DNA from: an uncultured Candidatus Bathyarchaeia archaeon
GTDB lineage: Archaea > Thermoproteota > Bathyarchaeia > RBG-16-48-13 > CAYWPD01
DNA length: 64,000 nucleotides
Assembly: GCA_964460055.1 (NCBI GenBank)
Contig: CAYWPD010000001.1
Coordinates: forward strand, 1,376 to 65,375
Direction of reading: 5' to 3'
Position 1 is the first letter of the stretch; every line of letters begins with the position of its first letter. This document shows, in pieces, positions 1,457 through 15,666 of this stretch. Both the position numbers and the translations under genes were made by a program. The notes below the pieces were generated by a model that was not told the DNA's origin, searched no databases, and saw nothing but the letters and a program-made list of their open reading frames with translations.

Positions 1457-2410
1457 TCACAGAACTTGGCCAAGGCATGGATCTGTTAGCAAGTCATAGC
1501 ATAAGTGGCACCTATTCACGTAGTTGTCGCGCCGCTTTGAACCGAGAAGTCTCTGAAGGCCTAAGGGTCCCTCAGCGCTGAGCGTTCTGAACAATGGGCG
1601 GTGACTTGCCTCCTCGATGAGCCTCCTCAATTTGTTGTTTTTTACGTTTCCTATCACAGCTGTGTCTGTTGATGCCGCCGCGGAGCAGCATGGAAGAACA
1701 TTCCCCGAAGGTGCTATGCCTACATCGCGGAGAATGGCCCGACACGGTCCCTCGAAGGAGCCGTTGCTGACGAGCCACTCTTCTCTTGGGATTTCCATTG
1801 CTCTGCCTATCGGAATGAATCCCGTCTCGATAGCTAGGGCGACAGGATGGTCCTTTGGTGACCCTGCCCCTATGATTCGGATGTCTTTGTCTTCTAGCAG
1901 TCTAGTGACCTCTCCTACCCTTAATCTGCTTGATTTTGCTGCAGCGCACATGATGATTATCTTTAGCCCAAGCTTTTTCGCCGCTTCGTAGCAGTTGCGG
2001 ACTCGATCAAATGGGATGTGGCGTTGATGGAAATCGTCGGCGCTTATGTTGATCGCATCGAGTCCGGCATCTACGAGCTTCTTCAATATCCTCTCGGCTT
2101 CTTCCTTCGTTGTTGCCCAGAAGCAATTCGTGACGCACTCTGTGTGAAATCCTCTACTGGCTGTGTAGCTGACGAGTTCTAGGAGTGTCTCCGGGAGCAA
2201 GAACGGTTCCCCACCCGTGAGACTGATCCATTCAACAGTCGGGATCTCCAGAGCTTGGTCGATGTAGTCAGCGGCTTCAACCAAGGCCATCTTAGCCTTC
2301 TTGTCCGGACCACAACCAAACCAACAGTGGCTACATGTCACGTTGCACTGCTCTGTAAGGAGCAAAGCCACCCGAAAGGTTCCAAACGGATCTTCCACGT
2401 GTGCTAACAT
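1457..2410 (-). CDS. radical SAM protein with C-terminal SPASM/twitch-like cysteine cluster
   Basis: The N-terminus carries CNVTCSHC, a CxxxCxxC radical-SAM cluster motif, followed by a GGEPFL glycine-rich SAM-binding region. The C-terminus has extra cysteines (PCC, then CHLCYDLLTDPC) resembling a truncated SPASM or twitch auxiliary-cluster domain. It is 30 bp downstream of the M28 peptidase on the same strand. Confidence 0.8.
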   Translation of the reverse strand: MLAHVEDPFGTFRVALLLTEQCNVTCSHCWFGCGPDKKAKMALVEAADYIDQALEIPTVEWISLTGGEPFLLPETLLELVSYTASRGFHTECVTNCFWATTKEEAERILKKLVDAGLDAINISADDFHQRHIPFDRVRNCYEAAKKLGLKIIIMCAAAKSSRLRVGEVTRLLEDKDIRIIGAGSPKDHPVALAIETGFIPIGRAMEIPREEWLVSNGSFEGPCRAILRDVGIAPSGNVLPCCSAAASTDTAVIGNVKNNKLRRLIEEASHRPLFRTLSAEGPLGLQRLLGSKRRDNYVNRCHLCYDLLTDPCLGQVL

Positions 2411-2440
2411 GTGATTTACGGGCCATTGTGAATCAGGGAT

Positions 2441-4324
2441 CTAGATGGCGGCTTTAAACTTCGCCAGTGTGTCCTTTATGAGCTCGTTGGCTAGGTAGAG
2501 TTCGTCCTCAACAATGTTCTTTTGTCTTTGGAGCTTTGTCAGCATGAACTTGAACTCTGGTGACTGTGGTAGAGACATCTCCGCGAGCTTTAGCATTCCA
2601 TAGATCCGGGGGAATGGTGTAGCTCCGAAGGTTTCCATGGACATCTGCTCCGTCCTTTCTGCGTCTGAGTGGGCTACGAGGTTGATGTGTCTCGATACCC
2701 ACATGATGCACCGGTTCAGTTCCTCCAGCATCTCATCAGTTGCTGCCCCATCCACCGCCTTCCTCACAGTGCCCTCCAGCCTCTCTGCCAACTCCCGAAA
2801 TTCTCTGGCCCTCTCAATGACTGAATTGATATTGAAATAGAAACTGATCTTGCCAGCCCCAGCTTGAAGGTCTTCAAGTATCTTGAGCATGGCGTCAGCA
2901 TATGGGACGAAGTTCATGGGCAGGACTGGGCAGTTCGTAACCTTGAAGATGAAGTTGAGGTTCACCTTCACATCTGTGCCAAGGATGTCTATATCGCCAT
3001 GCTCGATGGTTTCGTAGGGCGTATGCCACCACCAACCGCCGCCCGAGTAGTTCACAAAGGGATCATACAGATCCTTGGGACGAGCTGAGATGGTGCTTGC
3101 ATGAGGAAGTCCTGTCCCCCAGAAACTGTGGTCTCCAGCCCGACTCGGCCAATGGGAGCCTTCGACCTTTACGCCCGCAACCGACGCTATGCTTTCAGTA
3201 ACCAACTCCTGCAATTCACCTATAGGGGCCTCTCTGTAGGTGGTGGCTCCCTCAGTTCCAGGCGAATCGATGTTGAAGAAGGCAGTACAGTAATACCGCA
3301 GCTCGTGCCAGAAAGCGTCATTGTACCAAGTTGAACCACCATAGCGCCCTATCTCATGAGCAGTCCAGAATGCGAACCGAATGCTCCGTTTGAGCTTCTC
3401 ACTGTGCCCGTTGAGGACGCGCGCCAGTTCGAGGATGGCTACATTACCAGAGGCGTTGTCTACAGCGCCGGGTGAGAAAGGTGGTGTATCAACATGGCCA
3501 TTCACCAACATGAACTTCTCCGGATCTCTCACCCCTCTAATCTCGGCGACCAAGAGTGGCAACTTCTTCCATCCAGTCTCCACGATGGAGGTGACATGAG
3601 CGCGCATGTTTCCCTGCTTCGCGAGAACCTTCAGCCGCTGACCATCTCTATTAGACACGTGGACTATGGCCGAGATCCGCTGGACTAAGTCTATGCTGTC
3701 GATGGTCGGATTTCCCGAAACGGAGAAGTCAGCGCGTTGGTGGCATATCGTCGGCATGAACGAGTCTTGTTCGATGACAATGAGGCCCTTGACGCCCATA
3801 TTTTGTAGCTTTAACAACAGTGCGCCTTGAAGCCCCATCCAGTCACCAGAAGTCTTCTGCTCCGCCAGTACGATTTTTCCACGGCAATCTATTCTGCCGA
3901 TTTGCTCTGGGTCTATGTAGATGACTTCGCCTTCTATGCCCTCAGGCCCGGTCGTCCCTACCTGACGGTAAGGTGTGCATTGAACCTCGACCATCTCCGG
4001 AGACAGTACCTCGAGTCTGGCCAACTTGGGTTCGCTGATGTAAGCTTCGTATCGGAGCACCTGTGGTTTGAGGCCGTATTCCTCGAGCTTCGATTTCAGG
4101 AACTGAATGGCCTTTTCCTCTTGTTGACTACCGGAGGGGAGAGGGGTCAGCTCCATGAGGCTCTTCCAGTTCCTTTGCAACTCTTCCTTGGAGACTTCAC
4201 CTTCAAGCTCAGCTAGGAGCTCTTTATCTTCGTCTGTGAGCCAGATCATGAAAATACCTCGATAATGGTTCCTCTCGAAAGGAGGGGTATAAGATTTGTT
4301 GGCACTGTCGCTGTCCCTGCGCAT
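2441..4324 (-). CDS. M28 family metallopeptidase (aminopeptidase-like, with PA-type insert)
   Basis: Conserved M28 zinc-ligand regions are present: NGHVDT, DNASGNVAILELARVL and FAFWTAHEIG. There is no N-terminal signal peptide. An internal Met at 4249 preceded by a GAGGU Shine-Dalgarno-like element may be the true start. Confidence 0.72.
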   Translation of the reverse strand: MRRDSDSANKSYTPPFERNHYRGIFMIWLTDEDKELLAELEGEVSKEELQRNWKSLMELTPLPSGSQQEEKAIQFLKSKLEEYGLKPQVLRYEAYISEPKLARLEVLSPEMVEVQCTPYRQVGTTGPEGIEGEVIYIDPEQIGRIDCRGKIVLAEQKTSGDWMGLQGALLLKLQNMGVKGLIVIEQDSFMPTICHQRADFSVSGNPTIDSIDLVQRISAIVHVSNRDGQRLKVLAKQGNMRAHVTSIVETGWKKLPLLVAEIRGVRDPEKFMLVNGHVDTPPFSPGAVDNASGNVAILELARVLNGHSEKLKRSIRFAFWTAHEIGRYGGSTWYNDAFWHELRYYCTAFFNIDSPGTEGATTYREAPIGELQELVTESIASVAGVKVEGSHWPSRAGDHSFWGTGLPHASTISARPKDLYDPFVNYSGGGWWWHTPYETIEHGDIDILGTDVKVNLNFIFKVTNCPVLPMNFVPYADAMLKILEDLQAGAGKISFYFNINSVIERAREFRELAERLEGTVRKAVDGAATDEMLEELNRCIMWVSRHINLVAHSDAERTEQMSMETFGATPFPRIYGMLKLAEMSLPQSPEFKFMLTKLQRQKNIVEDELYLANELIKDTLAKFKAAI

Positions 4325-4464
4325 AGAGAACTTAGAATTTCCTTGTGAAGCTCTATCTCGTCGGTTGAAAGTCAGATTGCAGTCTAGATCTTCGACACTG
4401 GCCTAATCGGGAGAGAAATCCTTTCAAATTTGGCCACCCCCATGAGTGCGAGAGGAAAGGCCGT

Positions 4465-5091
4465 TTGAGAATTTCCGTAATAGTTCCAATCACCGGTTTG
4501 AATGAAGATGGCCTCGCTGAAAGAGTGAAGGTGCTGAACTCCATCAAAAGGCCTGATACCGTGATAGAGTTTTACAGAAGCGTTTCTGGACCGCCTGCGA
4601 TCGAGACGCGCGTAGACCATGATCTCGCCGTGCCCGAGATCCTGAGACTGGTTAAGGAAGCTGAGAACAAGGGTAGTGACGCAGCCATAATTTGGTGTGC
4701 CGGTGATCCCGGCCTCGAATCTTCCAGAGAGCTTGTCGACATTCCGGTAGTCGGTCCGAGACAAGCCTCATTCTCAATCGCCATGAACCTAGGCAGCAAC
4801 CCTACGGTACTGCCGCCTCCGTTACCCGTTCTTGAGCTGCGAAAGGATCTGGAGAAGACGATGCGTCTGGCCGAGAAGGCTGCAAGAGACTTGATGCGGA
4901 GCAGCAACTCGGATGTCTTGATTCTTGGCTGCATGGGGCTCTTCGGCCTGGCTAGGAAGCTTAGTATCAATCTGGGGATTCCTGTGATCGATCCTGCGGA
5001 GGCCGCTCTCAGCATGGCGGAGACTCTAGCGCACCTCAAATTGAGGCACAGCAGGCTCACCTATCCGAAGTACGAACCTCCTTCTAGATGA
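4465..5091 (+). CDS. Asp/Glu/hydantoin racemase family protein
   Basis: The roughly 208-aa size, an N-terminal IxVIxP motif and two conserved Cys (WCAGDPG and LGCMG) are positioned like the catalytic pair of hydantoin/Asp-Glu racemases. Confidence 0.6.
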   Translation: MRISVIVPITGLNEDGLAERVKVLNSIKRPDTVIEFYRSVSGPPAIETRVDHDLAVPEILRLVKEAENKGSDAAIIWCAGDPGLESSRELVDIPVVGPRQASFSIAMNLGSNPTVLPPPLPVLELRKDLEKTMRLAEKAARDLMRSSNSDVLILGCMGLFGLARKLSINLGIPVIDPAEAALSMAETLAHLKLRHSRLTYPKYEPPSR

Positions 5092-5560
5092 CGCCTAGGA
5101 TTCAACTCCCGTCCCCGCCTTTTGGGATGAATTTCAATACTGTCGGCGGGAATTGACCTCTTTTATTCGTGTCTTCTGAAGCGTCTGATGTCGTCAGAGC
5201 CACAGACATACTCGAGGCCTGTTTCGATGAGTGAGCTGGCTCCTTCGACGTTTTTGGCAACTTTGCAGACGTATTCGTCATCCTTAGACCATATGAGCTG
5301 TGTATGGACCAAGATGTGGCGCGCGGAATCACGATGGGCTGGACCGAAATTAAGCCGAAATGAGGTCAAGTCCACTAGCGTGCACTAGATCTTCGAGCAA
5401 TCGCGTGCTTTCGCTAGGGATATCGGAAGACATGAAGCGCACGCGGGGGTTTTCATTCTAGTTTTCGCAGGATCTTCGCATCTGTCGTCCACGTAGTCGG
5501 GGAGAGAAGGCTTCAGTTGCGCGCGCTCAAAGAGAGAATGTGTGCGGGAAAACAAACGCT

Positions 5561-6655
5561 TCAGATCTGTAGAAAAGTCTGGATGAGCCTTGCGATCAGC
5601 ATTGCGGCAACCGAAGCCGTGATCAATGCGAGCTTTCCTATTAGTGGGTTCTCAATCGGCCAAGTCCTAACAGTCATGAGTTTCCTTTCTACAGTTTCCA
5701 ACGTCAATAGCCTGATCATGTTCTGGTCATCCTTCTCACCTGTTTCTTCGATGCGGCTAATGAGTTCTGACAATAGCTTATTTGTCGATGCGATTTCGGC
5801 CCTTTTCGCTTCGAGCAGCCTATTGTGAGTACTCACCAACGGCGCTATGAATAGTGTTATCCCGACAGGAACTAGGACGAGCATAAAAATCACGTTTACC
5901 ACAGATGTCTGGCCTGCTAATCCGCCAAGAATCATCTGCCCCGCAAAAAGAGTCAATCCCAAGAAATATGCCGATAAAAATGAAAAGGCCAGGGACCCTA
6001 ATTTCCTAGTCCCTAGCGTTGGATCCTCGTGATAAGATTTGAGCTTGAGGTTCTGCTTTCCAAATCGATAAAGTCCCAGTAGAGATGCGCAATATAGCCA
6101 CAGTATGGAGCCAAACATCACGGAACGAACGAGAGAACGGAGAATGTAAATTGGAGTGCTAAGAACAGTCAGCTCACCTTTGCCTACCAGCTCTGGGACG
6201 GATGTCGCGTAGACAAATAAGAAGACGGACATTATTACCAGCTGAGGAAAATATTCGGAAACGATATTGAAAATTCTGCGCACGTCCTTTTCTCCGTTTG
6301 GAGCCAGAGATATCAGCTCTGGTTCAGCTTTGACCAAACACATTCCAAGATAACGTATGATGAAAGCTACATAAAAAAGGAAAACGTACCAAAGAACGTT
6401 GCCTGCTAGGGAATACCAGTTGGACTGGACTGCCGCCACGAGTCCGAATTCTTCTGCATTCGTCGATATGAAAGTTTGATATAAGGCACCTATGGCATTG
6501 TGTGACACTGAGTACAGGTAAAGGAAATTCCCAAGTGGCCCAGCGAAAGCCGCAACGAAGATGGTGCCAAGCACGGATGGTAGATGTGAAAAAACAAGCG
6601 TTTTTTCGAGCAGTGTTGGACGAAAGCTATCTGTCTTTTTCTTCGTGGAACTCAC
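5561..6655 (-). CDS. polytopic membrane protein, uncharacterised (paralog A)
   Basis: A 364-aa ORF with multiple hydrophobic helices. It shares architecture with the adjacent 6807..7877 ORF, including a central LKLK(S/P)..ED motif and a C-terminal TWP(I/F) motif followed by a final helix. Confidence 0.6.
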   Translation of the reverse strand: MSSTKKKTDSFRPTLLEKTLVFSHLPSVLGTIFVAAFAGPLGNFLYLYSVSHNAIGALYQTFISTNAEEFGLVAAVQSNWYSLAGNVLWYVFLFYVAFIIRYLGMCLVKAEPELISLAPNGEKDVRRIFNIVSEYFPQLVIMSVFLFVYATSVPELVGKGELTVLSTPIYILRSLVRSVMFGSILWLYCASLLGLYRFGKQNLKLKSYHEDPTLGTRKLGSLAFSFLSAYFLGLTLFAGQMILGGLAGQTSVVNVIFMLVLVPVGITLFIAPLVSTHNRLLEAKRAEIASTNKLLSELISRIEETGEKDDQNMIRLLTLETVERKLMTVRTWPIENPLIGKLALITASVAAMLIARLIQTFLQI

Positions 6656-6806
6656 TTTCCTTTAATTCTTATGTCTGTTTGGAGCTTGATTTGCATTTGT
6701 TCGTGAACCTGCTCGGTTTGGGTCTGCGTATTTCTAACATCTGCGAACTTTGTTTTTGAGGTGGGCAAGTTGTCCACAACTGAGCTCATTCTGGGCTGAA
6801 TCATCT

Positions 6807-7877
6807 TCACAAGTTCATAACAACTGTAAGTATGTTAGCTAGCAATATCGCTGTCACGGAAAGCAGAATCGTGAGCATGTGTCCTAGTACCCCTGTGTCA
6901 AAGGGCCAAGTGGGGATTCTCTCGAGTCTCTTTTCCATAAAATCCATCAACAGCAATTTCTGGATGCAGTTGGGATTCTTCCCTATCTTTGTTTCGCCGT
7001 CCACAGACGAAATTTGCAGAGTCCTACGTTCTTCTAGGAGTTTATGCCTCTCGAGCTCCTTTTGCTCGACCATTTTTCTGCGAAAAACATTGATAGTGAG
7101 TAGGAATGCAATCAATCCGAAAACCACCAGGGTCAACTCAAATGCGAGGTTCACAGCCGTCGGAGTGATTTCAACGCCGGAAGCCAAGATTCCGAGCCCT
7201 CGCAAACCTACAGCTCCAAAGTACACTAGAACTAGAGCGAGAGAAATCGAACCGATTGGACCAAGGCCAAAGAGAGAGTCTTCTGAGGAGGGTTTCAACT
7301 TCATCGATTCTTTTGCAAGTTTGCGAAGACTCCAGACTGAACTGAAGAATAGCCATATTCCTGTTCCTCCTGCAAAGTAGAGTGTGACTTGCGAAAGCAC
7401 GACATATACCGAGCTGAAGCTCCCCAAAGATAGAGCAATCATCTTGTAGGCACTTGGCGCAAAACATGCCCCGATTATGGTTGTTGTCGCAAGTGCACCA
7501 ATTCGACTCGAAACGATGCGGAAATCCTTATCGAATGCTTCTTCTCCGGCTAAGAGCAAGGGTGAAAGTGCGGTTCGCGCCTTCACTAGTTGCCGTCGGA
7601 AATACCTTACGAAATAGAAGAGGTAGAACATGAAGCCCCCATACGCTATAGTCCAGTAGAACACGATAGCACGCCAGTAGCTTTCTGAACCAGTTACGGT
7701 TCCAGCGATAGAGAACGTCTGGGCGAGATTGTAGGAATCAAGGTATCTTGTCAACAAATAACCTGGGAATCCAAGCGTCAGAGTAAGAAGAATACAGCTA
7801 GCAGTGTAGGGGAGGGGTATGAAAGTCACAAATCCCTCGAAGAGGGTCTCTGTCACAGGCTCTCTCGAACCCTTCAC
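6807..7877 (-). CDS. polytopic membrane protein, uncharacterised (paralog B)
   Basis: A 356-aa ORF that is a tandem paralog of 5561..6655: same strand, 150 bp apart, with similar helix layout and conserved short motifs. Confidence 0.6.
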   Translation of the reverse strand: MKGSREPVTETLFEGFVTFIPLPYTASCILLTLTLGFPGYLLTRYLDSYNLAQTFSIAGTVTGSESYWRAIVFYWTIAYGGFMFYLFYFVRYFRRQLVKARTALSPLLLAGEEAFDKDFRIVSSRIGALATTTIIGACFAPSAYKMIALSLGSFSSVYVVLSQVTLYFAGGTGIWLFFSSVWSLRKLAKESMKLKPSSEDSLFGLGPIGSISLALVLVYFGAVGLRGLGILASGVEITPTAVNLAFELTLVVFGLIAFLLTINVFRRKMVEQKELERHKLLEERRTLQISSVDGETKIGKNPNCIQKLLLMDFMEKRLERIPTWPFDTGVLGHMLTILLSVTAILLANILTVVMNL

Positions 7878-8067
7878 TGAAAGCGTGCCTAGCCATTCTC
7901 TGAGTCCCGTATTGACGCCACTCCCGGTGGTTCTTGACCAGAAAAGTATTTAAATCTTCCCACATTGGAAAGAGATCTCTCACATTTGCGGACAATTCGC
8001 ACGTTTCGCTGGCAAGATATTTCCAAAATGTTAAATACCCGCGTTTCGATCTGGAATCAGAGGAAAT

Positions 8068-8631
8068 ATGCCTAATAGACTGGACGAACTTGACCTGAAG
8101 ATCATTCGACAGCTGCAAATTGATGCCAGAGCCTCGGTAACAGAGTTGGCTGAGAAAGTAGAGTCGTCTCGTCCTACGACGACAAATAGATTGAAGCGGT
8201 TACTGGACGAGGATCTGATTCTCATAAGGGGAGGTTTGAATCTTCGACAATTTGGCTTCAAAGTTGCACAAGTCGGTCTGGAGGTTCGAACCGACAACGC
8301 TAGAAAGAAAATCGAGAGCCATCTAAGGAACTGCCCCAGAGTCTTGGACATCTTTAGAACTCCCGAGAAGGCGAACATTCACTTGAACCTATGGGGAGAG
8401 GACGATCAAACGATCAACTCGACAATAGAAAGTTTTCGCGATCAGCAAAATGTAGGCATAGTCTACACTCGCTACCTGGGAACCCCTATTCACGGAGATA
8501 TCCCCGTTCATGTTGAAACGAGAAAGAATGATGAAACTCCATGCGGCAGGAAATGTAGTGGATGCCACAGCTATCAAAATGCATGGTGCAGAGGTTGTCC
8601 ATCGTCATCAGACTACAAAACTTTCTTCTAA
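8068..8631 (+). CDS. Lrp/AsnC family transcriptional regulator with Cys-rich C-terminal extension
   Basis: N-terminal HTH_AsnC pattern (LDELDLKIIRQLQIDARASVTELAEKV) is followed by a RAM-like domain. A roughly 40-aa tail, CGRKCSGCHSYQNAWCRGC, gives CxxxCxxC...CxxC. Confidence 0.8.
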   Translation: MPNRLDELDLKIIRQLQIDARASVTELAEKVESSRPTTTNRLKRLLDEDLILIRGGLNLRQFGFKVAQVGLEVRTDNARKKIESHLRNCPRVLDIFRTPEKANIHLNLWGEDDQTINSTIESFRDQQNVGIVYTRYLGTPIHGDIPVHVETRKNDETPCGRKCSGCHSYQNAWCRGCPSSSDYKTFF

Positions 8632-8797
8632 ATGTCTAAGGAGGCCAGGCGTGCTCCGAGACTTCCTAAGATACTTTGCGCGCATGCCACATTTCGCGAG
8701 TATCGACGAAAGGCCAACTCAAGACGTGTCTCCGACGTACTCGATCTCTTGGACGCCTAAACGTAGGGCAGAATGAAAAAACAGAAGAGCCCCAGTC

Positions 8798-10408
8798 CTA
8801 GGACTGCCTCCTTCTTAGAACCATGCCTGCTCTCGCGCCTATATGCTCTCCATTTTCTACCGCAGCCTCACCGTTGACTATTACATAGCGGATGCCCTGA
8901 GGATACCGATGTGGGTCTTGGTATGTTGCAAGATCCAACACCGTATCAGGGTCGAAGATTGTTACGTCGGCCTGCATTCCTTCGGCCAGGAGCCCACGGT
9001 CGAGTAGCCCAAGTCTACGAGCCGGCAGTGAGGTCATCTTGCGGACTGCTTCCTCAAGCCGCAGGATCTTCTTATCGCGTATGTACCTGCCTAGAACCCG
9101 TGGGAAGGTTCCGTAGTTTCGGGGATGAGGCTTTCCAACATGGAGTTTTCCATACGGGGCATAACTGCTTCCGTCCGTCCCTATCATTGAACCGGGATAT
9201 CGAAGCACCGTTTCGACGTCCTGCTCATTCATCTCAAAGATCACTATCTGGGCGACGCCTTTGCTCTCCACGAGCAGATCGAAGGCAGTGTCGATTGGAT
9301 CCCTGTCTCTCAGCTTTGCGATCTCGGCGACGCTCTTTCCTTCCAGTGATCTGTCTGGGTCAAACTGTGAGATGATTATGTTCTCCCATCCGGCCTGCCT
9401 AGCTAAGTCTTCCCATCTGGGTATGCCTTCTATTATCTCGTGTTTCAGTCTCGATCTGATTTTCTTATCGCCCAGTCTGCTCACTAGGTTCGAAAGCCCT
9501 TCTTCATGAGCCCAAGTCGGAATACAGGCACTGAGGTCCGTACTTCCTGCCGTATACGGGTACACATCGCAGGTGACGTCAACTCCTCTCTTGCGTGCCT
9601 CCTCGATCATCCGTAGAGAATCGTTTACCTTGCCCCAGTTCTCGCTCCCCGCCGCCTTGTGATGCGATATCTCCACTGGCACCCCGGCTCTTTCTCCGAT
9701 CGCTATTGCCTCGTCCACAGCTTCAAGAAGGTAGTTGCTTTCATTTCTGATGTGACTGGAATAGAATCCTCCGTATCCTGATACGACTTTGCATAGTTCA
9801 ACAAGTTCTTCTGTCTTTGAGTATGAGCCTGGTGCGTATATCAGTCCTGAAGAGAGTCCTCGAGCGCCATCCTTCATAGCCTCTCCGACAAGCCCCTTCA
9901 TCTCTTCCATTTCGACTTCGGTTGGACTCCGATTATCGTAACCCATCACGGCAATTCGCACAGTGCCGTGGCCTACCAGTGGGGCGACATTGACTGAGAT
10001 CTTTCTCTCTTCCAGAGTCCTCAGATAGTCTTCGAAGGATCTCCAAGCCCAGTTGACCTCTTCTGCTAGCGGCATGCAGTTCTTCTTCAGAAGGTCCAGT
10101 CTGTCCTCGCGTATGGGTGCGAGTGTTGAACCACAATTTCCTAGAACCTCTGTGGTAACTCCTTGTCTGATCTTGCTTTCTGCCAAGGGGTTTATGAGGA
10201 GATGGAGGTCCGAATGGCTATGCATGTCGATGAAGCCTGGTGCAACTATGAGGCCGGAGCCGTCTATTGTGAGATTAGGCTCGGCTCCGTGGAAAGGGCC
10301 TATTCCTGAGATTTTGTCGGATTCGATCAGAACATCAGCCTTAAACCACGGATTCCCGGTTCCGTCGACGACGAACCCATTCTTAATCAGAACGTCTCCC
10401 ATCACCAT
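8798..10408 (-). CDS. N-acyl-D-amino-acid deacylase (D-aminoacylase) family amidohydrolase
   Basis: The ORF has a metal-binding GFIDMHSHSD motif, is about 536 aa long, and carries the glycine-rich C-terminal region typical of D-aminoacylase-type amidohydrolases. Confidence 0.68.
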   Translation of the reverse strand: MVMGDVLIKNGFVVDGTGNPWFKADVLIESDKISGIGPFHGAEPNLTIDGSGLIVAPGFIDMHSHSDLHLLINPLAESKIRQGVTTEVLGNCGSTLAPIREDRLDLLKKNCMPLAEEVNWAWRSFEDYLRTLEERKISVNVAPLVGHGTVRIAVMGYDNRSPTEVEMEEMKGLVGEAMKDGARGLSSGLIYAPGSYSKTEELVELCKVVSGYGGFYSSHIRNESNYLLEAVDEAIAIGERAGVPVEISHHKAAGSENWGKVNDSLRMIEEARKRGVDVTCDVYPYTAGSTDLSACIPTWAHEEGLSNLVSRLGDKKIRSRLKHEIIEGIPRWEDLARQAGWENIIISQFDPDRSLEGKSVAEIAKLRDRDPIDTAFDLLVESKGVAQIVIFEMNEQDVETVLRYPGSMIGTDGSSYAPYGKLHVGKPHPRNYGTFPRVLGRYIRDKKILRLEEAVRKMTSLPARRLGLLDRGLLAEGMQADVTIFDPDTVLDLATYQDPHRYPQGIRYVIVNGEAAVENGEHIGARAGMVLRRRQS

Positions 10409-10414
10409 TTTCTC

Positions 10415-12076
10415 CTATTCATTCTCTTGTGCTTCGAAAGAATTGACCTGTCTAGGTTTCTGATAGACTATTTTTCCCCCGACGATGGTCACGTCGACCT
10501 CGACATTCTTTATCCGCTCGGTTGGTATGATGGTTATGTCCTCATGTAGGACAGTGATATCTGCCAATTTTCCTTGCTCTATTGAACCCTTCAGATCCTC
10601 TTCAAAGGAGGCGTATGCTCCATCGATCGTATATGCTCTCAACGCGTCGACAACACTGATGCACTCACTCTCATCAAGGACCATTCTGGCCATCGTCTTC
10701 CGCGTGATCATTCCGTAGATACCTAGCATTGGGTTCTCCGAGCAGACTGGGAAGTCTGAATGTCCAGGCGCTCTAATGCCGAGGGATTTCAAGGTTCTGT
10801 GTGGGAGCACATTCCTCATTCTGCCTTCGCCTAGGTTCGCTAGATAGGCGTCTCCGAGATCATAGATGAAACCGGCCGCCGACATGTTCAACACATCGAG
10901 ACGCTTCAGCCTCGCCGCAATGCTTGAAGTGACATAACAGCAGTGCTCTATCCTATGCCGGTGATTCTTCTTGGGCAGAGCTTCCAGAGCTTTCTCTATG
11001 GCATCTAGGCATGCATCTATCCCTCTGTCTCCGACTCCATCCAATCCGACGCGGAGACCTGCCTTGTGAGCTTGAAGAACCATGGAGTTCATCACCTCCG
11101 GCGGATAGAGAATGAATCCTCGGTTTTCCGGTTCCCCCAAATATGGCTCATAGTATGCAGCTGTTCTGCCGCTTGTGCTGCCATCAAAGACCCATTCGAT
11201 GCCGATTACCTTGATCCACTCGTCTCCAAAACCCGTTTCCAGCCCCGTCTTTATCAGCGCTGAGAGCAGTCCCTCCTCCCCTCCATCCATCATCAGGCCA
11301 ACTCTGATCGGCAGTTCTCCTTCCCTGCGAAGTTCTTGGAAAGCCTTCAAATGTAGCGAGCCGGCGGTCGAGGCTTGTATACTTGTTATACCGCATCGCG
11401 TAAGTTGCTGGAAGCAGAGTTTCAGGCCTTTCTTGATGTCTTCTAGCGTGTAAGGTGGGATCGAGTCTCGGACGAGTTCTTGGGCCCTTCCTCTCAAAAC
11501 TCCCGTGAGTTCTCCATCGGATGCTCTATCTAGCTTTCCGGAGGGTGGATCTTTGGTCTCTCTTCCAACCTCTGCCTTCTCGAACGCCAAAGTGTTGCCG
11601 ACGCTCACATGCCCATCTACTCTTCTGACGTATACTGGGTTGCATGGGGCCGCTTCATCCAGCTCCCACCTTGTGACGTGCCTATTCTCTTCGAGTTTGG
11701 TATTGTCGTAGCCCCAGGCTATTATCCAAGTGCCTGGCTCTGTATGCTTCGCCTTCTTCGAGATCTCAGTCTTCAGATCTGCGATGGATTTGACTTTAGG
11801 GTATCTGCAGTCCACCTCACTCAGCAGCCTTGTGGCGAGATGGGTTGGATGTGTATGGGAATCCACTATTCCAGGAATCGCACATCTTCCCGAGAGATCG
11901 ATCTTCACTGTCTTAGGCCCTGCCGATGATAGAGCCTCATCGCTAGTCCCGACGAAAGTGATTCTGTCGGACTTGATGACAACAGCTTGGGCGATGGTAT
12001 CGTCCTCATCGAGAGTAACTATCTTCCCGTTGAAGAGAACTAAGTCGGCGCTCACACGATCTGTTGTCGCGATCAT
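10415..12076 (-). CDS. amidohydrolase family protein (Amidohydro_3 / YtcJ-like metal-dependent hydrolase)
   Basis: A 553-aa ORF with an N-terminal IPGIVDSHTHP metal-binding motif, a C-terminal HSDFPV and a GKLADITVL-type terminus typical of Amidohydro_3 enzymes. Confidence 0.7.
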   Translation of the reverse strand: MIATTDRVSADLVLFNGKIVTLDEDDTIAQAVVIKSDRITFVGTSDEALSSAGPKTVKIDLSGRCAIPGIVDSHTHPTHLATRLLSEVDCRYPKVKSIADLKTEISKKAKHTEPGTWIIAWGYDNTKLEENRHVTRWELDEAAPCNPVYVRRVDGHVSVGNTLAFEKAEVGRETKDPPSGKLDRASDGELTGVLRGRAQELVRDSIPPYTLEDIKKGLKLCFQQLTRCGITSIQASTAGSLHLKAFQELRREGELPIRVGLMMDGGEEGLLSALIKTGLETGFGDEWIKVIGIEWVFDGSTSGRTAAYYEPYLGEPENRGFILYPPEVMNSMVLQAHKAGLRVGLDGVGDRGIDACLDAIEKALEALPKKNHRHRIEHCCYVTSSIAARLKRLDVLNMSAAGFIYDLGDAYLANLGEGRMRNVLPHRTLKSLGIRAPGHSDFPVCSENPMLGIYGMITRKTMARMVLDESECISVVDALRAYTIDGAYASFEEDLKGSIEQGKLADITVLHEDITIIPTERIKNVEVDVTIVGGKIVYQKPRQVNSFEAQENE

Positions 12077-12629
12077 TCTCTCACCCGGCCCATGTGATAT
12101 CAGATTGAAACTTTGGATTGTGTGGTTGCGCTGAGCTCATAATGGTTGAGGTTTCCAATTTGTCCCGACCGAAGCAGTGCCCTGACCGCTCTGCTGATGA
12201 CGTTATTCACCGCTCTTCTTCCAGAAGTATCTGCAGTTGATACTGTTGAGGAAAATTCTTCACCCGGGTGTTTTCGGTGCTCTGTCTGGGTGAACGAATC
12301 GGGCCCTGATAGTTCAGTTCGCGATGGCGCCTCCTACAGAGTATTCCGGCTGATAGTTCTCTGTTTCAAAGGATGACAGGCCAAGCTGAAAAGTAGCTGA
12401 ATCTGGCAAATGCTTTTTGGGTGAGTATTCTCAGTCTAGTGTTGGAGATGAAGCAGCCGTCCCAGACGGACCTCTTGGCGAAGAGAGATGGCGACCTCGT
12501 GACGAGCTGATCCACCTTTCTTAAGGAGAAAGAACAGGCCCTTCAAAACGTCTTTTGAATTTCTGTTCCAATCGAAATTGTCGCTCAATCGGATATCGGC
12601 TTGATCATTGTCTTGAGAAGAGTCGCACC

Positions 12630-13778
12630 CTATAGCTCAGTCCCGGGTATACGTCTTTCTCGACTTTGGAAAAACAGTAGGAATGTGGAAAACGATGTCA
12701 AGAGCGCGAACAGCAAGAAAGGAGACCTAAGATCGACTCCTAGGAGAGGAGTGACCAAGATCGGCATAGCGGGAAACGATAGGTCGATGACGCCGTCAAA
12801 GAAGGCCATGTATAGACTCTCCATGCCCGAGGGTGCCGATTTCGCTATCATGGCACCGGACTGGACGAAGACCGCTCCAAGGGTCACACCTAGCCATCCC
12901 ATCCAGACGGCCATCAGGACAGGGTTCTTCGAGATGTAAAGCAAAAAGAAGGGTGGCACGCAAGACAGTGCAAAGAAGGCGGCCAAGAATCGGCCTCTCC
13001 ATTTCTCGAATACGACTCCGAGAGGGATCTGAAAAAGCAGGAACGTTACGAAATAGGAAGAAAGAATCAATCCTATCGTGACATTCGAGAACCCTTCGGA
13101 TGACCCGATGAGAGGAATGACCAATTCAAAGCCTGCAAATCCAATTTCTACGAGAAAGACCGCTAGACATACCATTACTACGGAGTATCTGGAGAGCAGG
13201 TCTCTAATGGAGTGTCTGAAGGTCTCTCTTGCGGCGACTGTTTTCTTCTCCGAAATCAGTATCATCGTGGGAATGCCGGCTGCACTAACCAGCGCACTCA
13301 GGAAGAATGGATACGAAAGATTCAGCGACCCAAGGATTCCTCCCAATATGGGTGCGATCATCATTCCAAATCCTTGGAAAGTCCTGTAGATCGAAAAACT
13401 CTTCGACTTCTCTCCCATCTGAGCGATCAATCCCAAAACGGCTGGTCCAAAGATCCCAAGCCCTATACCCTGGATGACACGGAAGACTACAAGTTGAAAG
13501 AAGGTCTGGGCGACCCCACATAGTAGGGCAGAGGCTCCATAGGTTGCCAAACCCAATGACCCAAGTCTCTTTTTGCCGTACTTATCGCAAAGATGCCCGG
13601 TAAACATCTCAAGTAAGGCCCAAGTTAGAGAATAAGCGGAAAAAAAGGCCCCTATTTCCGCATACGTCACCCCATACTTCTCGACGTATTGAGGGAGGAT
13701 TGGCGACACTACGAACAGTCCGAAGGTACTGAGGAATCCCAAGACAGATGTGCCCAGTAGCGCAATCTTTCTTTCCAA
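12630..13778 (-). CDS. MFS transporter
   Basis: A 382-aa protein with about 12 hydrophobic helices and glycine-rich loops characteristic of MFS transporters. Confidence 0.78.
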   Translation of the reverse strand: MERKIALLGTSVLGFLSTFGLFVVSPILPQYVEKYGVTYAEIGAFFSAYSLTWALLEMFTGHLCDKYGKKRLGSLGLATYGASALLCGVAQTFFQLVVFRVIQGIGLGIFGPAVLGLIAQMGEKSKSFSIYRTFQGFGMMIAPILGGILGSLNLSYPFFLSALVSAAGIPTMILISEKKTVAARETFRHSIRDLLSRYSVVMVCLAVFLVEIGFAGFELVIPLIGSSEGFSNVTIGLILSSYFVTFLLFQIPLGVVFEKWRGRFLAAFFALSCVPPFFLLYISKNPVLMAVWMGWLGVTLGAVFVQSGAMIAKSAPSGMESLYMAFFDGVIDLSFPAMPILVTPLLGVDLRSPFLLFALLTSFSTFLLFFQSRERRIPGTEL

Positions 13779-13925
13779 TTAGGAACAATCCGGCGCTTCT
13801 GCCCTAGTGTGGAGCGGGCTACAGGATCAAGTTAGGCTCTTTCTGAGCGTTTCGAACTTTTAGGGATATTCTTCGCCCCTGCTCCAGTACCGAGACTCGG
13901 CTCTTTTTGGTCTCTGATAATCAGA

Positions 13926-14693
13926 CTATTTCGTTTTTTCAAGGAACTTCGTCAGGACGTATAGGATTCGATCCACTGAAGCCTCTATCAGCTTCTCACC
14001 AAGCTCTTTGGAAGCGTAGGTTGGATCTCCGACAGAACCCGTGTTTGTGTAGTCTTCGAAGTATCTTGTTGGATTGGGTTGGATCTTCTCGCTGTATCCC
14101 TTCGGTTCCAGACTGATCTCGGGCGTTCTTACAAAGGGCCTTAGAATCCTGTCCATCCTGACTGTCTCCGGCAGTAGATACATAGCCATGCTGGTCTCGA
14201 TCTCGCAGGCATGCCCCCAGAACTCGGACTTCGCCTCCTTGGCTTCTATGTCTCGCGTGAATCTCCACCAGTCAATCACCAGAATACTCCGTTCCAGTTC
14301 ATTCTGGAGCTCTGTCGCGGCCACCCACAGGGCTTGATCATTACCCCCATGCCCGTTCAGCAAGACGATCTTTCTCGCGCCATGCCTAGCTAAGCTCCTG
14401 CAGATGTCGCTTATCACTCCGATGAATGTCTCCGGGGAGAGCGTAATTGTCCCCGCAAAGTGCATATGGTGTTCGGATAGGCCGTATGAGACTCGTGGAG
14501 CCACAAGGATTCTGAGGCTCGACTTCGTTTTCTCGACGATCTTCTTGGCAACCTCGTGGGTGAGGGCAGTATCATTCTGTAGCTCCATATGGTGGGAGTG
14601 CTGTTCGTGGCTTCCGATGGGAACGATGACGTAATCGGCGGACTTGATCGCTTCGTCAGCCTCTTGCCATGTCATCCTCTCAAGCTCGAACAT
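13926..14693 (-). CDS. creatininase-family amidohydrolase
   Basis: Creatininase-family motifs are present: IVPIGSHEQHSHH, LLNGHGGN and a WGHACEIETS-like Glu/His region. It is 255 aa long. Confidence 0.75.
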   Translation of the reverse strand: MFELERMTWQEADEAIKSADYVIVPIGSHEQHSHHMELQNDTALTHEVAKKIVEKTKSSLRILVAPRVSYGLSEHHMHFAGTITLSPETFIGVISDICRSLARHGARKIVLLNGHGGNDQALWVAATELQNELERSILVIDWWRFTRDIEAKEAKSEFWGHACEIETSMAMYLLPETVRMDRILRPFVRTPEISLEPKGYSEKIQPNPTRYFEDYTNTGSVGDPTYASKELGEKLIEASVDRILYVLTKFLEKTK

Positions 14694-14817
14694 CTAATCG
14701 CCTCTGACTCAAGTCGGGTTTGACTAGAATGTGTGGAGGTTCAATAATACGCCTTTTCTCATGCGGATCTGATGGGAACCTTTTTCTCGAAGGGCAAGAG
14801 GTCTCTTCTCGAAACCG

Positions 14818-15666
14818 GTGAATAGAGGGTTGCTCAGCTCTAGGGTTGCAATCGCGAGGGGGACTGATCCGTCAGAGATGGTGCGTCAAGCAATCACTCT
14901 TCTAGATGCGGGGAGAGTGGTTAAAGGTGGAGACAGGGTTTTGATCAAGCCCAACTGCGTGGCTGACCGGACACCTTTGACGGGAATTACCACTGACCCC
15001 CGAATTGTGGAGGAGCTGATACTCTATGCGAATGAGGAAGGAGCTGAAGAGGTTGTGGTTGCAGACGGGGGATCCGTGGATACCGAGAGGGTCTTCGAGA
15101 CGACTGGGCTGAAGCGACTTGCCAAGAAGCACGGGGTCAGACTCGTCGATCTTAACAGAGACGAAAAAGTCCGAATCCAAATTCCCAATGCGATGGCCTT
15201 GACAGAGGTTGATGTTGCCAAGACGGCTCTTGACTGCAACTGCATCATCAATGTCCCGAAGCTGAAGGTTCACCACATAGCCCTCGTGACGTTGGCGATA
15301 AAGAACCTGATGGGTGTCATCCTGCCGAAGAGCATCATACACGCGCAGCTGCATGAGAAGCTCTCTGATCTGGCGACCTTCTTCAAGCCTAGGCTCAATG
15401 TGATCGATGGAACCGTCGGATCGGAGATCGACGAGGTGAATGGAAGACCGGTTCAAATGAATCTCATCATAGTCGGCGTGGACATCGTGGCCACAGATTC
15501 GGTCGGCGCAGCAGTGATGGGGATCAGTCCGCAGAGCGTCAGACACATTGCCCTATCGGAATCGAGAGGAGTAGGTTGTGCAGATCTCGATCAGATCCAA
15601 GTGGTAGGGAATAGTATCGAGAAGGTCAAGAAGAATTTTGAGTTGCCCCCTGAGTTCAGAGGCTAA
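14818..15666 (+). CDS. DUF362 domain protein
   Basis: The layout (VAIARG...V.QA..LLD...VKGGDRVLIKPN...IINVPKLKVHH) matches the DUF362 family architecture. It is divergently transcribed from the creatininase-family gene. Confidence 0.62.
   Translation: MNRGLLSSRVAIARGTDPSEMVRQAITLLDAGRVVKGGDRVLIKPNCVADRTPLTGITTDPRIVEELILYANEEGAEEVVVADGGSVDTERVFETTGLKRLAKKHGVRLVDLNRDEKVRIQIPNAMALTEVDVAKTALDCNCIINVPKLKVHHIALVTLAIKNLMGVILPKSIIHAQLHEKLSDLATFFKPRLNVIDGTVGSEIDEVNGRPVQMNLIIVGVDIVATDSVGAAVMGISPQSVRHIALSESRGVGCADLDQIQVVGNSIEKVKKNFELPPEFRG

Follow-up and report, generated by a model that had tools for sequence, protein, structure and literature searches.

In a 64,000-nucleotide stretch of DNA from an uncultured Candidatus Bathyarchaeia archaeon (contig CAYWPD010000001.1; the whole stretch is called the window below), a complete gene on the plus strand at positions 8068..8631 encodes a regulator of the Lrp/AsnC family with a cysteine-rich module at its C-terminus. 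The reading frame specifies 187 amino acids, starting at an ATG that is preceded, 4 nucleotides upstream, by GAGG, and ending with a TAA stop codon at 8629-8631. Fourteen independent metagenomic contigs encode an identical protein, and at the four places displayed its neighbors are the same too. From the N-terminus, the protein comprises an AsnC-type winged helix-turn-helix (HTH; residues 5-45, positions 8080..8202), a RAM domain (residues 65-138, 8260..8481), a linker (residues 139-157, GTPIHGD..., 8482..8538) that is variable outside the Bathyarchaeia clade in conservation profiles, the cysteine module itself (P158-C159-G-x2-C163-x2-C166-x7-C174-x-G176-C177-P178, 8539..8601, delimited by conservation in 63 representatives), and C-terminal residues 179-187 (8602..8628), which include a near-invariant Tyr183 (95% conserved); all of these are encoded on the plus strand. 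Where strand β-2 of the RAM domain begins lies a Cys89-Pro90 dipeptide (8332..8337, with C89 at 8332-8334); it is invariant in three alignments, its cysteine also in a survey of open reading frames (ORFs), and it is proposed to supply a sixth ligand to the five cysteines of the tail.

That the regulator belongs to the Lrp/AsnC, or feast/famine (FFRP), family is shown by sequence and predicted fold. The HTH matches Pfam PF13404 with E=4.9e-14 (52.3 bits, to be compared with a cut-off of 27); the RAM domain is detected in Pfam only below threshold (residues 72-134, E=0.13). The structure predicted by AlphaFold2 (AF2) from a diverse alignment has a mean predicted local distance difference test score (pLDDT) of 86.4 and consists of three HTH helices (residues 7-18, 24-30 and 35-47) followed by a β-α-β-β-α-β domain. 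The family profile also matches solved Lrp-family structures: LrpC (2cfx, E=2.5e-12), FL11, LrpA, AsnC and others, in alignments that run from residue 1-5 to residue 120-130. In none of these matches are more than 140 residues of the 187 aligned, and the proteins concerned have lengths of 140-156 residues; compared with all solved members of the family, this one therefore carries the tail as an addition. The last RAM strand of the AF2 model ends at residue 138, which makes the C-terminal extension 49 residues long. It contains the peptide CGRKCSGCHSYQNAWCRGC, with the motif C159-x3-C163-x2-C166-x7-C174-x2-C177. The initial annotation of this DNA had described an HTH and RAM-like scaffold extended past the point at which Lrp/AsnC proteins ordinarily end, and these statements hold; its tail of about 40 residues was too short, and its spacing of C-x3-C-x2-C-x8-C-x2-C had the right number of cysteines but one residue too many in the third gap, which is 7 rather than 8.

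A tail of this kind might be an artifact: translational read-through, a frameshift fusing a downstream ORF, or a misplaced stop codon. A search of 5.8 billion proteins for close homologs, which yielded 198 matches, disposes of all three. The best 120 of the 198 are 173-213 amino acids long (mostly 185-190) and 58-81% identical to the query, mostly over 98-100% of its length; their C-termini align without gaps and their five tail cysteines are invariant, and it is for this reason that the tail is neither a read-through product nor a fusion nor the result of a wrong stop: close homologs share its length, its sequence and the position at which it terminates. The alignment with homologs that the initial annotation had called for thus finds the tail kept in every ortholog. 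The few close homologs that carry names are all labeled Bathyarchaeia or Bathyarchaeota. The tail is a real and conserved extension of an Lrp/AsnC protein, and its cysteine cluster is far beyond chance.

The module extends well beyond these close relatives. When a profile restricted to the tail (38-45 residues) was run against 1.84 billion cluster representatives, 112 matches at E<=1e-3 were obtained; almost all are proteins of 185-205 amino acids in which the match lies at the extreme C-terminus, and they display the same HTH, RAM and tail architecture as the query. A diverse alignment was built from 63 full-length representatives that are 20-58% identical to the query (median 28%). Its only invariant columns are C89, P90, C159, C163, C166, C174 and C177; the only further columns conserved at more than 90% are L16, E111, P158, G176, P178 and Y183. 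The HTH_AsnC residues L16, R41 and L45 are conserved at 87-95%. C89 is an additional invariant cysteine, absent from the initial five-cysteine description of the protein; in profile alignments, ordinary Lrp proteins carry Leu or Tyr at this position. His142 was entertained as an extra ligand, since it is 90% conserved among close homologs, and was discarded because its conservation does not extend outside the Bathyarchaeia clade to the wider family. With the diverse alignment as profile, 397 protein clusters were retrieved at E<=1e-10, and every source name among them is "Lrp/AsnC family transcriptional regulator".

The signature was also sought in DNA. A degenerate pattern for P-C-G-x2-C-x2-C-x7-C-x-G-C-P was scanned over one genome per species for 185,579 species; by our own calculation, which assumes equal base frequencies, about 0.5 matches would be expected by chance in the 596 Gb covered. 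At least 119 loci were found. Each of the 120 pattern matches listed falls within an ORF recognized by the family HMM (100 full-length, the others truncated or lacking the HTH), so that among these matches the motif is found solely in an Lrp/RAM context. The position equivalent to C89, which is not part of the pattern, is Cys in all 115 of the listed ORFs that cover it. Because the C89-P90 dipeptide places a candidate sixth ligand inside the RAM domain, the site is probably built jointly by RAM domain and tail, rather than simply appended to an otherwise ordinary regulator.

Variations on the architecture are also encountered. About eight complete proteins of 125-175 amino acids lack the HTH and consist of a RAM-like domain and cysteine tail (L021, L027, L040, L055, L100, L108, L111 and L118, from Thorarchaeota, Heimdallarchaeota and Bathyarchaeia genomes); searches with them returned no match in Pfam or NCBIfam. 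These proteins keep all six cysteines, and RAM domain and tail therefore travel as one module. They could serve as co-sensors that hetero-oligomerize with full-length regulators. Longer members retain the HTH, RAM domain and cysteine tail at their C-termini and add N-terminal parts: P0134, P0165 and P0171 are 303-305 amino acids long, P0193, P0203 and P0221 256-267, P0152 410 and P0187 454. The N-terminal part of P0187 is a KaiC/MEDS-like region, and P0152 apparently has a duplicated Lrp unit.

The tail has no significant counterpart in the domain collections. Pfam and NCBIfam were scanned with the entire protein, with 35 tails and with six diverse members (stand-alone ones included) and gave nothing significant for the tail; the best sporadic matches, each to one or two members, are DZR (E=0.01), zf-RING_4 (0.015), DUF3795 (0.1) and DUF1289 (0.13). 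The tail profile likewise found nothing significant among PDB sequences, its best match being the USP5 ZnF-UBP domain at E=0.3. With the whole protein and the 35 tails, TRASH and YHS domains are not matched at E<=10 (their motif spacing also differs), and neither query set matches HMA. Assignment to the radical SAM superfamily was considered on account of the C-x3-C-x2-C motif and rejected, because PF04055 is not matched and the fold is that of Lrp; DUF3795 (PF12675) was set aside as well, its best match reaching E=0.1 in 1 of the 35 tails. Nor is the module described in the full-text literature that was searched, although coverage there is thin for subscription journals and absence is no proof. 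The cysteine module, without a Pfam, NCBIfam or PDB counterpart, marks an uncurated branch of the Lrp family. AF2 was uninformative about the tail when it was provided with 76 close homologs (residues 151-187 fall below a pLDDT of 50). Provided with 73 sequences that include relatives 23-35% identical to the query, it modeled residues 161-180 with a pLDDT of 87-88 and placed short helices around C163-Q170; confidence gained in this way from a diverse alignment points to a module with a defined, co-evolving structure, and the tail accordingly has a defined fold as far as prediction goes.

What the regulator might control is suggested by its immediate surroundings. Upstream of it, and transcribed divergently, lie two genes on the minus strand for paralogous membrane proteins: mem2 (6807..7877, 356 amino acids, of no recognized family) and, beyond it, mem1 (5561..6655, 364 amino acids), 27% identical to mem2 (E=1e-28) and, like it, devoid of relatives in Pfam, NCBIfam and PDB. 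The closest relatives of the regulator, P0005 (77% identity), P0018 (70%) and P0026 (69%), share the arrangement: in their loci (L130, L131 and L133, on Bathyarchaeia contigs), orthologs of mem2 (64-80% identity) adjoin the regulator divergently and orthologs of mem1 (66-76%) lie beside them. Thus, mem2 is divergent from and adjacent to the regulator in all four distinct lineages of close orthologs, and the opposite flank varies. On that opposite flank of the window are two Amidohydro_3 genes (8798-10408 and 10415-12076), also on the minus strand and convergent on the regulator. The initial annotation rightly placed the regulator divergent from the two membrane paralogs; it also placed it upstream of the amidohydrolase array, which cannot be so in a transcriptional sense because those genes converge on it. 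They are not conserved beside orthologs of the regulator either, and an amidohydrolase regulon is supported on neither count. What is conserved beside the regulator is the divergent membrane-protein pair and not the amidohydrolases; mem2 is the most likely local target of the regulator, and mem2 and mem1 form an uncharacterized membrane-protein family that is probably under its control.

The space between mem2 and the regulator contains two blocks conserved in the four orthologous loci. One, TTTCCAAAATGTTAAATAC (8020..8038, plus strand), is located about 30 nucleotides upstream of the regulator ATG and resembles a B recognition element (BRE) and TATA box; the other is a TATA-like box predicted for mem2 (7946..7953, minus strand; GTATTTAA when read on the plus strand) and embedded in the conserved sequence TA(C/T)TTAA..CTT..CA.AT. 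The box at 7946-7953 is a perfect inverted partner of 8031-8038, 77 nucleotides away, the two forming the arms of an inverted pair (I2). We infer that the two conserved blocks serve two divergent archaeal promoters as TATA/BRE elements, an arrangement typical of autoregulated Lrp-type regulators and their targets.

The genes around the regulator, from 1457 to 15666 and with the two Amidohydro_3 enzymes among them, look like a neighborhood for salvage of peptides or amino-acid derivatives; this neighborhood is not conserved beside orthologs of the regulator. It holds genes for a radical SAM/SPASM protein (1457-2410), an M28 peptidase (2441-4324), an ORF tagged by Pfam as Asp/Glu-racemase-like (4465-5091), a creatininase (13926-14693) and a DUF362 protein (14818-15666), and MFS transporters are encoded at 175-1431 and 12630-13778. 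Among its neighbors in the window, the regulator has neither a copper ATPase nor a copper chaperone gene (copA/copM), and in its own clade genes for metal-efflux ATPases, chaperones and TauE, like ars genes, are missing from the adjacent positions.

Away from the closest orthologs, the company that the regulator keeps changes. The more distant members of its own clade (59-64% identity) have other, unrelated neighbors (ThiI/ThiC, Ccm, a B12 methyltransferase, GGR). In four own-clade loci (L005-L007 and L025), a small membrane gene of the FUN14 family lies downstream of the regulator, and in L005-L007 it is followed by an MTS-type methyltransferase gene and a gene of the metallo-beta-lactamase fold, which makes this a second recurrent context. 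A single conserved neighbor for the whole superfamily was looked for and does not exist; neighborhoods are specific to subfamilies. In other subfamilies, a TauE/SafE-type anion exporter gene adjoins the regulator in 10 loci from several phyla, divergently or co-directionally. The TauE/SafE loci are L011, L015, L024, L035, L047, L072, L096, L116, L117, L120 and L122, from Thermoproteota, Desulfurococcales, Methanomassiliicoccales, Archaeoglobi-like and Korarchaeia genomes, and the recurrence in several phyla suggests a conserved regulator-exporter pair. One of them, L015 in a metagenome-assembled genome (MAG) of Desulfurococcales, has two paralogous cysteine-tailed Lrp genes (4560-4621 and 6517-6578) 2 kb apart with TauE between them; several other MAGs carry at least two copies of the regulator, on different contigs. 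A gene for an Fe-S (iron-sulfur) carrier ATPase of the Mrp/NUBPL type adjoins the regulator in seven loci and is separated from it by one ORF in L126; the loci concerned are L020, L023, L056 and L083 (Brockarchaeota-type) and L036, L050, L081 and L126 (Bathyarchaeia). A DGC-domain gene follows the ATPase in L020, L023, L056 and L083; NifX-like genes are found beside it in L081, and one lies further along the locus in L083. Also in other subfamilies, Fe-S proteins of PF04060 are adjacent to the regulator in 3 loci and a NifX-like gene in 1. In Thorarchaeota, a ThyA-like gene paired with a hexapeptide gene stands beside the regulator, and some Asgard loci have SBF/ACR3-like and ArsR genes nearby.

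By record title, the matches listed are distributed over Bathyarchaeia/Bathyarchaeota, Archaeoglobi (including Archaeoglobus and Ferroglobus MAGs) and Brockarchaeota, over Asgard groups (Thor-, Loki- (Promethearchaeota), Heimdall-, Hod- and Jordarchaeales), and over Thermoproteales/Desulfurococcales, Methanomassiliicoccales, Methanomethylicia, Korarchaeia, Methanodesulfokora and Conexivisphaerales. We take the host lineages of these loci, at least 119 in number, to be anaerobes. Two loci bear bacterial labels: L057 (CAYQJV010000086.1, "uncultured bacterium"), on a contig of 3 kb, and L058 (DATGZD010000159.1, "Candidatus Sulfotelmatobacter"). As printed, the sequence of the L058 protein looks like those of Bathyarchaeia members, so that the label probably reflects bin contamination rather than transfer.

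What are six cysteines doing in an Lrp protein? Only cysteines, Cys-Pro dipeptides and a few Gly, Pro and Tyr residues survive at about 28% identity, and for this reason the branch that carries the six-cysteine module very likely binds a metal or an iron-sulfur cluster. The nature of the cofactor is a more delicate matter. The reading that we favor, tentatively and at somewhat less than an even chance, is that C89 and the five tail cysteines ligate a redox- or oxygen-labile cluster of the [4Fe-4S] type, and that the protein is a sensor controlling mem2/mem1; cofactor binding, Fe-S identity, sensor role and the targets are all points that we infer. Four arguments, each circumstantial, favor Fe-S: the spacing, the two invariant Cys-Pro dipeptides, the anaerobic host lineages and the Fe-S-carrier neighbors. 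C-x3-C-x2-C is a classic [4Fe-4S] spacing, and Cys-Pro is common in ferredoxin-type motifs; in the 63 representatives, C89 invariantly and C177 at 90% or more precede a proline (P90 and P178). An Fe-S transcription sensor is expected to have at least three to four conserved cysteines in a compact motif, and six invariant ones are found here.

In the Lrp family it is through the RAM domains that dimers pack together and effectors are sensed (e.g., in FL11, LrpA and CopR), and for that reason the occupancy or oxidation state of a site built into one would control assembly and DNA binding. In outline, the effector domain would have been rebuilt into a cysteine-ligated cofactor site, to which C89, from the margin of the RAM sheet, and the five cysteines of the C-terminal mini-domain would both contribute; of the six, the two not needed for a [4Fe-4S] cluster might bridge, stand in for other ligands or form a redox pair. 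RAM packing would change (dimer to higher oligomer) when the cofactor is loaded, lost or oxidized; the altered packing would in turn change binding to the control region of about 190 bp that is shared with mem2, and the outcome would be autoregulation combined with control of mem2/mem1. A more sweeping proposition, and a doubtful one, is that the entire branch is an iron-sulfur Lrp/FFRP lineage with the present protein as its first known example: a pan-archaeal, anaerobe-specific sensor of redox state, O2 or Fe-S status in which the amino-acid pocket of the RAM domain has been converted, with the paralogs next to Mrp/NUBPL genes as possible archaeal counterparts of the IscR/SufR-type regulators of Fe-S homeostasis and the HTH-less proteins as co-sensors.

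Several considerations weigh against a [4Fe-4S] sensor of local genes. Sequence cannot reveal whether a metal or a cluster is bound, and the AF2 models are made without cofactor. A [4Fe-4S] cluster needs only four cysteines, and six invariant ones are no less compatible with other chemistries, such as Zn(Cys)4 with a redox pair, a binuclear Zn2Cys6 site or a Cu(I)4S6 cluster. The Fe-S-related neighbors occur in other subfamilies and partly reflect synteny by descent, and Fe-S genes abound in such genomes in any case; the TauE, SBF/ACR3-like, ArsR and DGC neighbors of the wider family hint at the handling of anions or metalloids. The restriction to anaerobes is drawn from the 119 listed loci, all MAGs, and the designation of a local target holds for the closest relatives only.

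Zinc is the most serious competitor, although we regard it as improbable on balance. The cysteines would then form Zn(Cys)4 with two to spare, or a binuclear Zn2Cys6 cluster whose ligand count they match exactly, and the site would be either a structural staple between tail and RAM domain that stabilizes the oligomer or a thiol redox switch like that of the ZAS anti-sigma factors, whose H/C-x3-C-x2-C zinc site the C-x3-C-x2-C of the tail resembles. C163/C166 and C174/C177, both of them C-x2-C pairs, resemble zinc knuckles, yet the 7-residue gap between them is short for a classical zinc ribbon. The best PDB match of the tail is to the zinc finger of USP5 and its weak single-member Pfam matches include the zinc modules DZR and zf-RING_4 (E values as given above), but no zinc-finger match is significant or recurrent, each being confined to 1 of 35 tails. 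A purely structural site would also leave the restriction to anaerobic lineages unexplained, as it would the invariant Cys-Pro dipeptides. Clearly less probable than zinc is a sensor of thiophilic metals, metalloids or reactive sulfur species (Cu(I), As(III), Cd, sulfide/polysulfide or sulfite) that follows the logic of CopR/CopT. It has a precedent in CopR, an Lrp regulator whose copper response is mediated by a C-terminal TRASH domain (PMC7830388). It would also be in keeping with the 10 cases of adjacent TauE/SafE exporters in several phyla and with the SBF/ACR3-like transporter, ArsR and DGC-domain genes near the regulator in other subfamilies, and six cysteines can hold a Cu4S6 cluster. 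Against this stand the failure to match TRASH/YHS or HMA, and the window's own clade, where the partner is an unfamiliar membrane pair in place of an adjacent metal-efflux ATPase, chaperone, TauE or ars gene; moreover, invariance of all six cysteines across paralogous subfamilies whose neighbors differ is better fitted by a built-in cofactor than by a variety of ligands from outside.

Finally, the Lrp fold is not the exclusive property of regulators: the siroheme decarboxylase AhbA/B and NirDL share it, HTH-less stand-alone versions of the present protein exist, and NCBIfam registers a weak match to AhbA (NF040708, E=0.0048). Could the protein be an enzyme or chaperone subunit whose cysteines serve catalysis or cofactor handling? 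This we consider very improbable. The AhbA match, at 16.7 bits, falls far short of its cut-off of 140, and in sequence and fold comparisons alike, bona fide regulators score at least as high; the HTH_AsnC residues L16, R41 and L45 are well conserved, heme/siroheme, ahb and nir genes were not found nearby, and the divergent-promoter layout is the one typical of autoregulated Lrp regulators.

Lrp/FFRP proteins are among the most abundant transcription factors of archaea and are regarded as amino-acid sensors. The six-cysteine tail is the signature of a widespread branch of this family and not the oddity of one gene. Should it prove to bind an Fe-S cluster, the branch would provide the first Lrp-type redox or Fe-S sensor for archaea, and with it a handle on oxygen and iron-sulfur sensing in anaerobic archaea that have not been cultured, among them the Asgard relatives of eukaryotes.

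It is instructive to set this protein beside known systems. Its likeness to DUF3795, DUF1289 and radical-SAM motifs, CG-x2-C-x2-C followed by C-x-GC, is superficial: among 35 tails, one matches DUF3795 (E=0.1) and two match DUF1289 (E=0.13), in neither case significantly, and there is no radical-SAM domain. The known stand-alone RAM proteins (STS042, 2zbc; TTHA0845, 2djw) are about 80 residues long and are without a cysteine-rich extension. With the canonical archaeal Lrp/FFRP proteins (LrpA, FL11/PH1519, Ss-LrpB, LysM, Grp), the regulator shares the fold and order of HTH and RAM domain and, probably, autoregulation from a divergent intergenic region. Canonical effectors are amino acids bound between RAM domains. 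The canonical proteins end after the RAM domain at about 140-155 residues and carry Leu or Tyr where this one has Cys89 and, in addition, its tail. The bacterial Fe-S sensors (IscR, NsrR and RsrR of the Rrf2 family, SufR, FNR, WhiB-like proteins and ArnR) embody the principle proposed here, a DNA-binding protein with a cysteine-ligated Fe-S cluster, and SufR likewise combines a winged HTH with a C-terminal cysteine cluster; they differ in cysteine spacing, have no relationship to the present protein in sequence or fold, and contain a cluster that here is only proposed.

The closest concept in the literature is, by analogy, CopR of Pyrococcus and Thermococcus. CopR is an octameric regulator of the Lrp family in which a C-terminal, cysteine-containing TRASH domain senses copper, and it stands in a divergent-promoter arrangement with its target (PMC7830388). 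An AsnC-type HTH, a RAM-like domain and a C-terminal cysteine extension are the design common to the CopR/CopT proteins (Pyrococcus furiosus PF0739, Thermococcus, Saccharolobus) and to the regulator described here. The modules themselves are different: the present one does not match PF08394 or PF04945 and is not TRASH, its C-x3-C-x2-C-x7-C-x2-C-P contrasting with the C-x19-22-C-x3-C of that domain; a sixth invariant cysteine is recruited from the RAM domain; and copper-handling genes are absent from the vicinity. CopR establishes that the Lrp scaffold can carry a metal-sensing add-on, and the six-cysteine module would be a second and different one.

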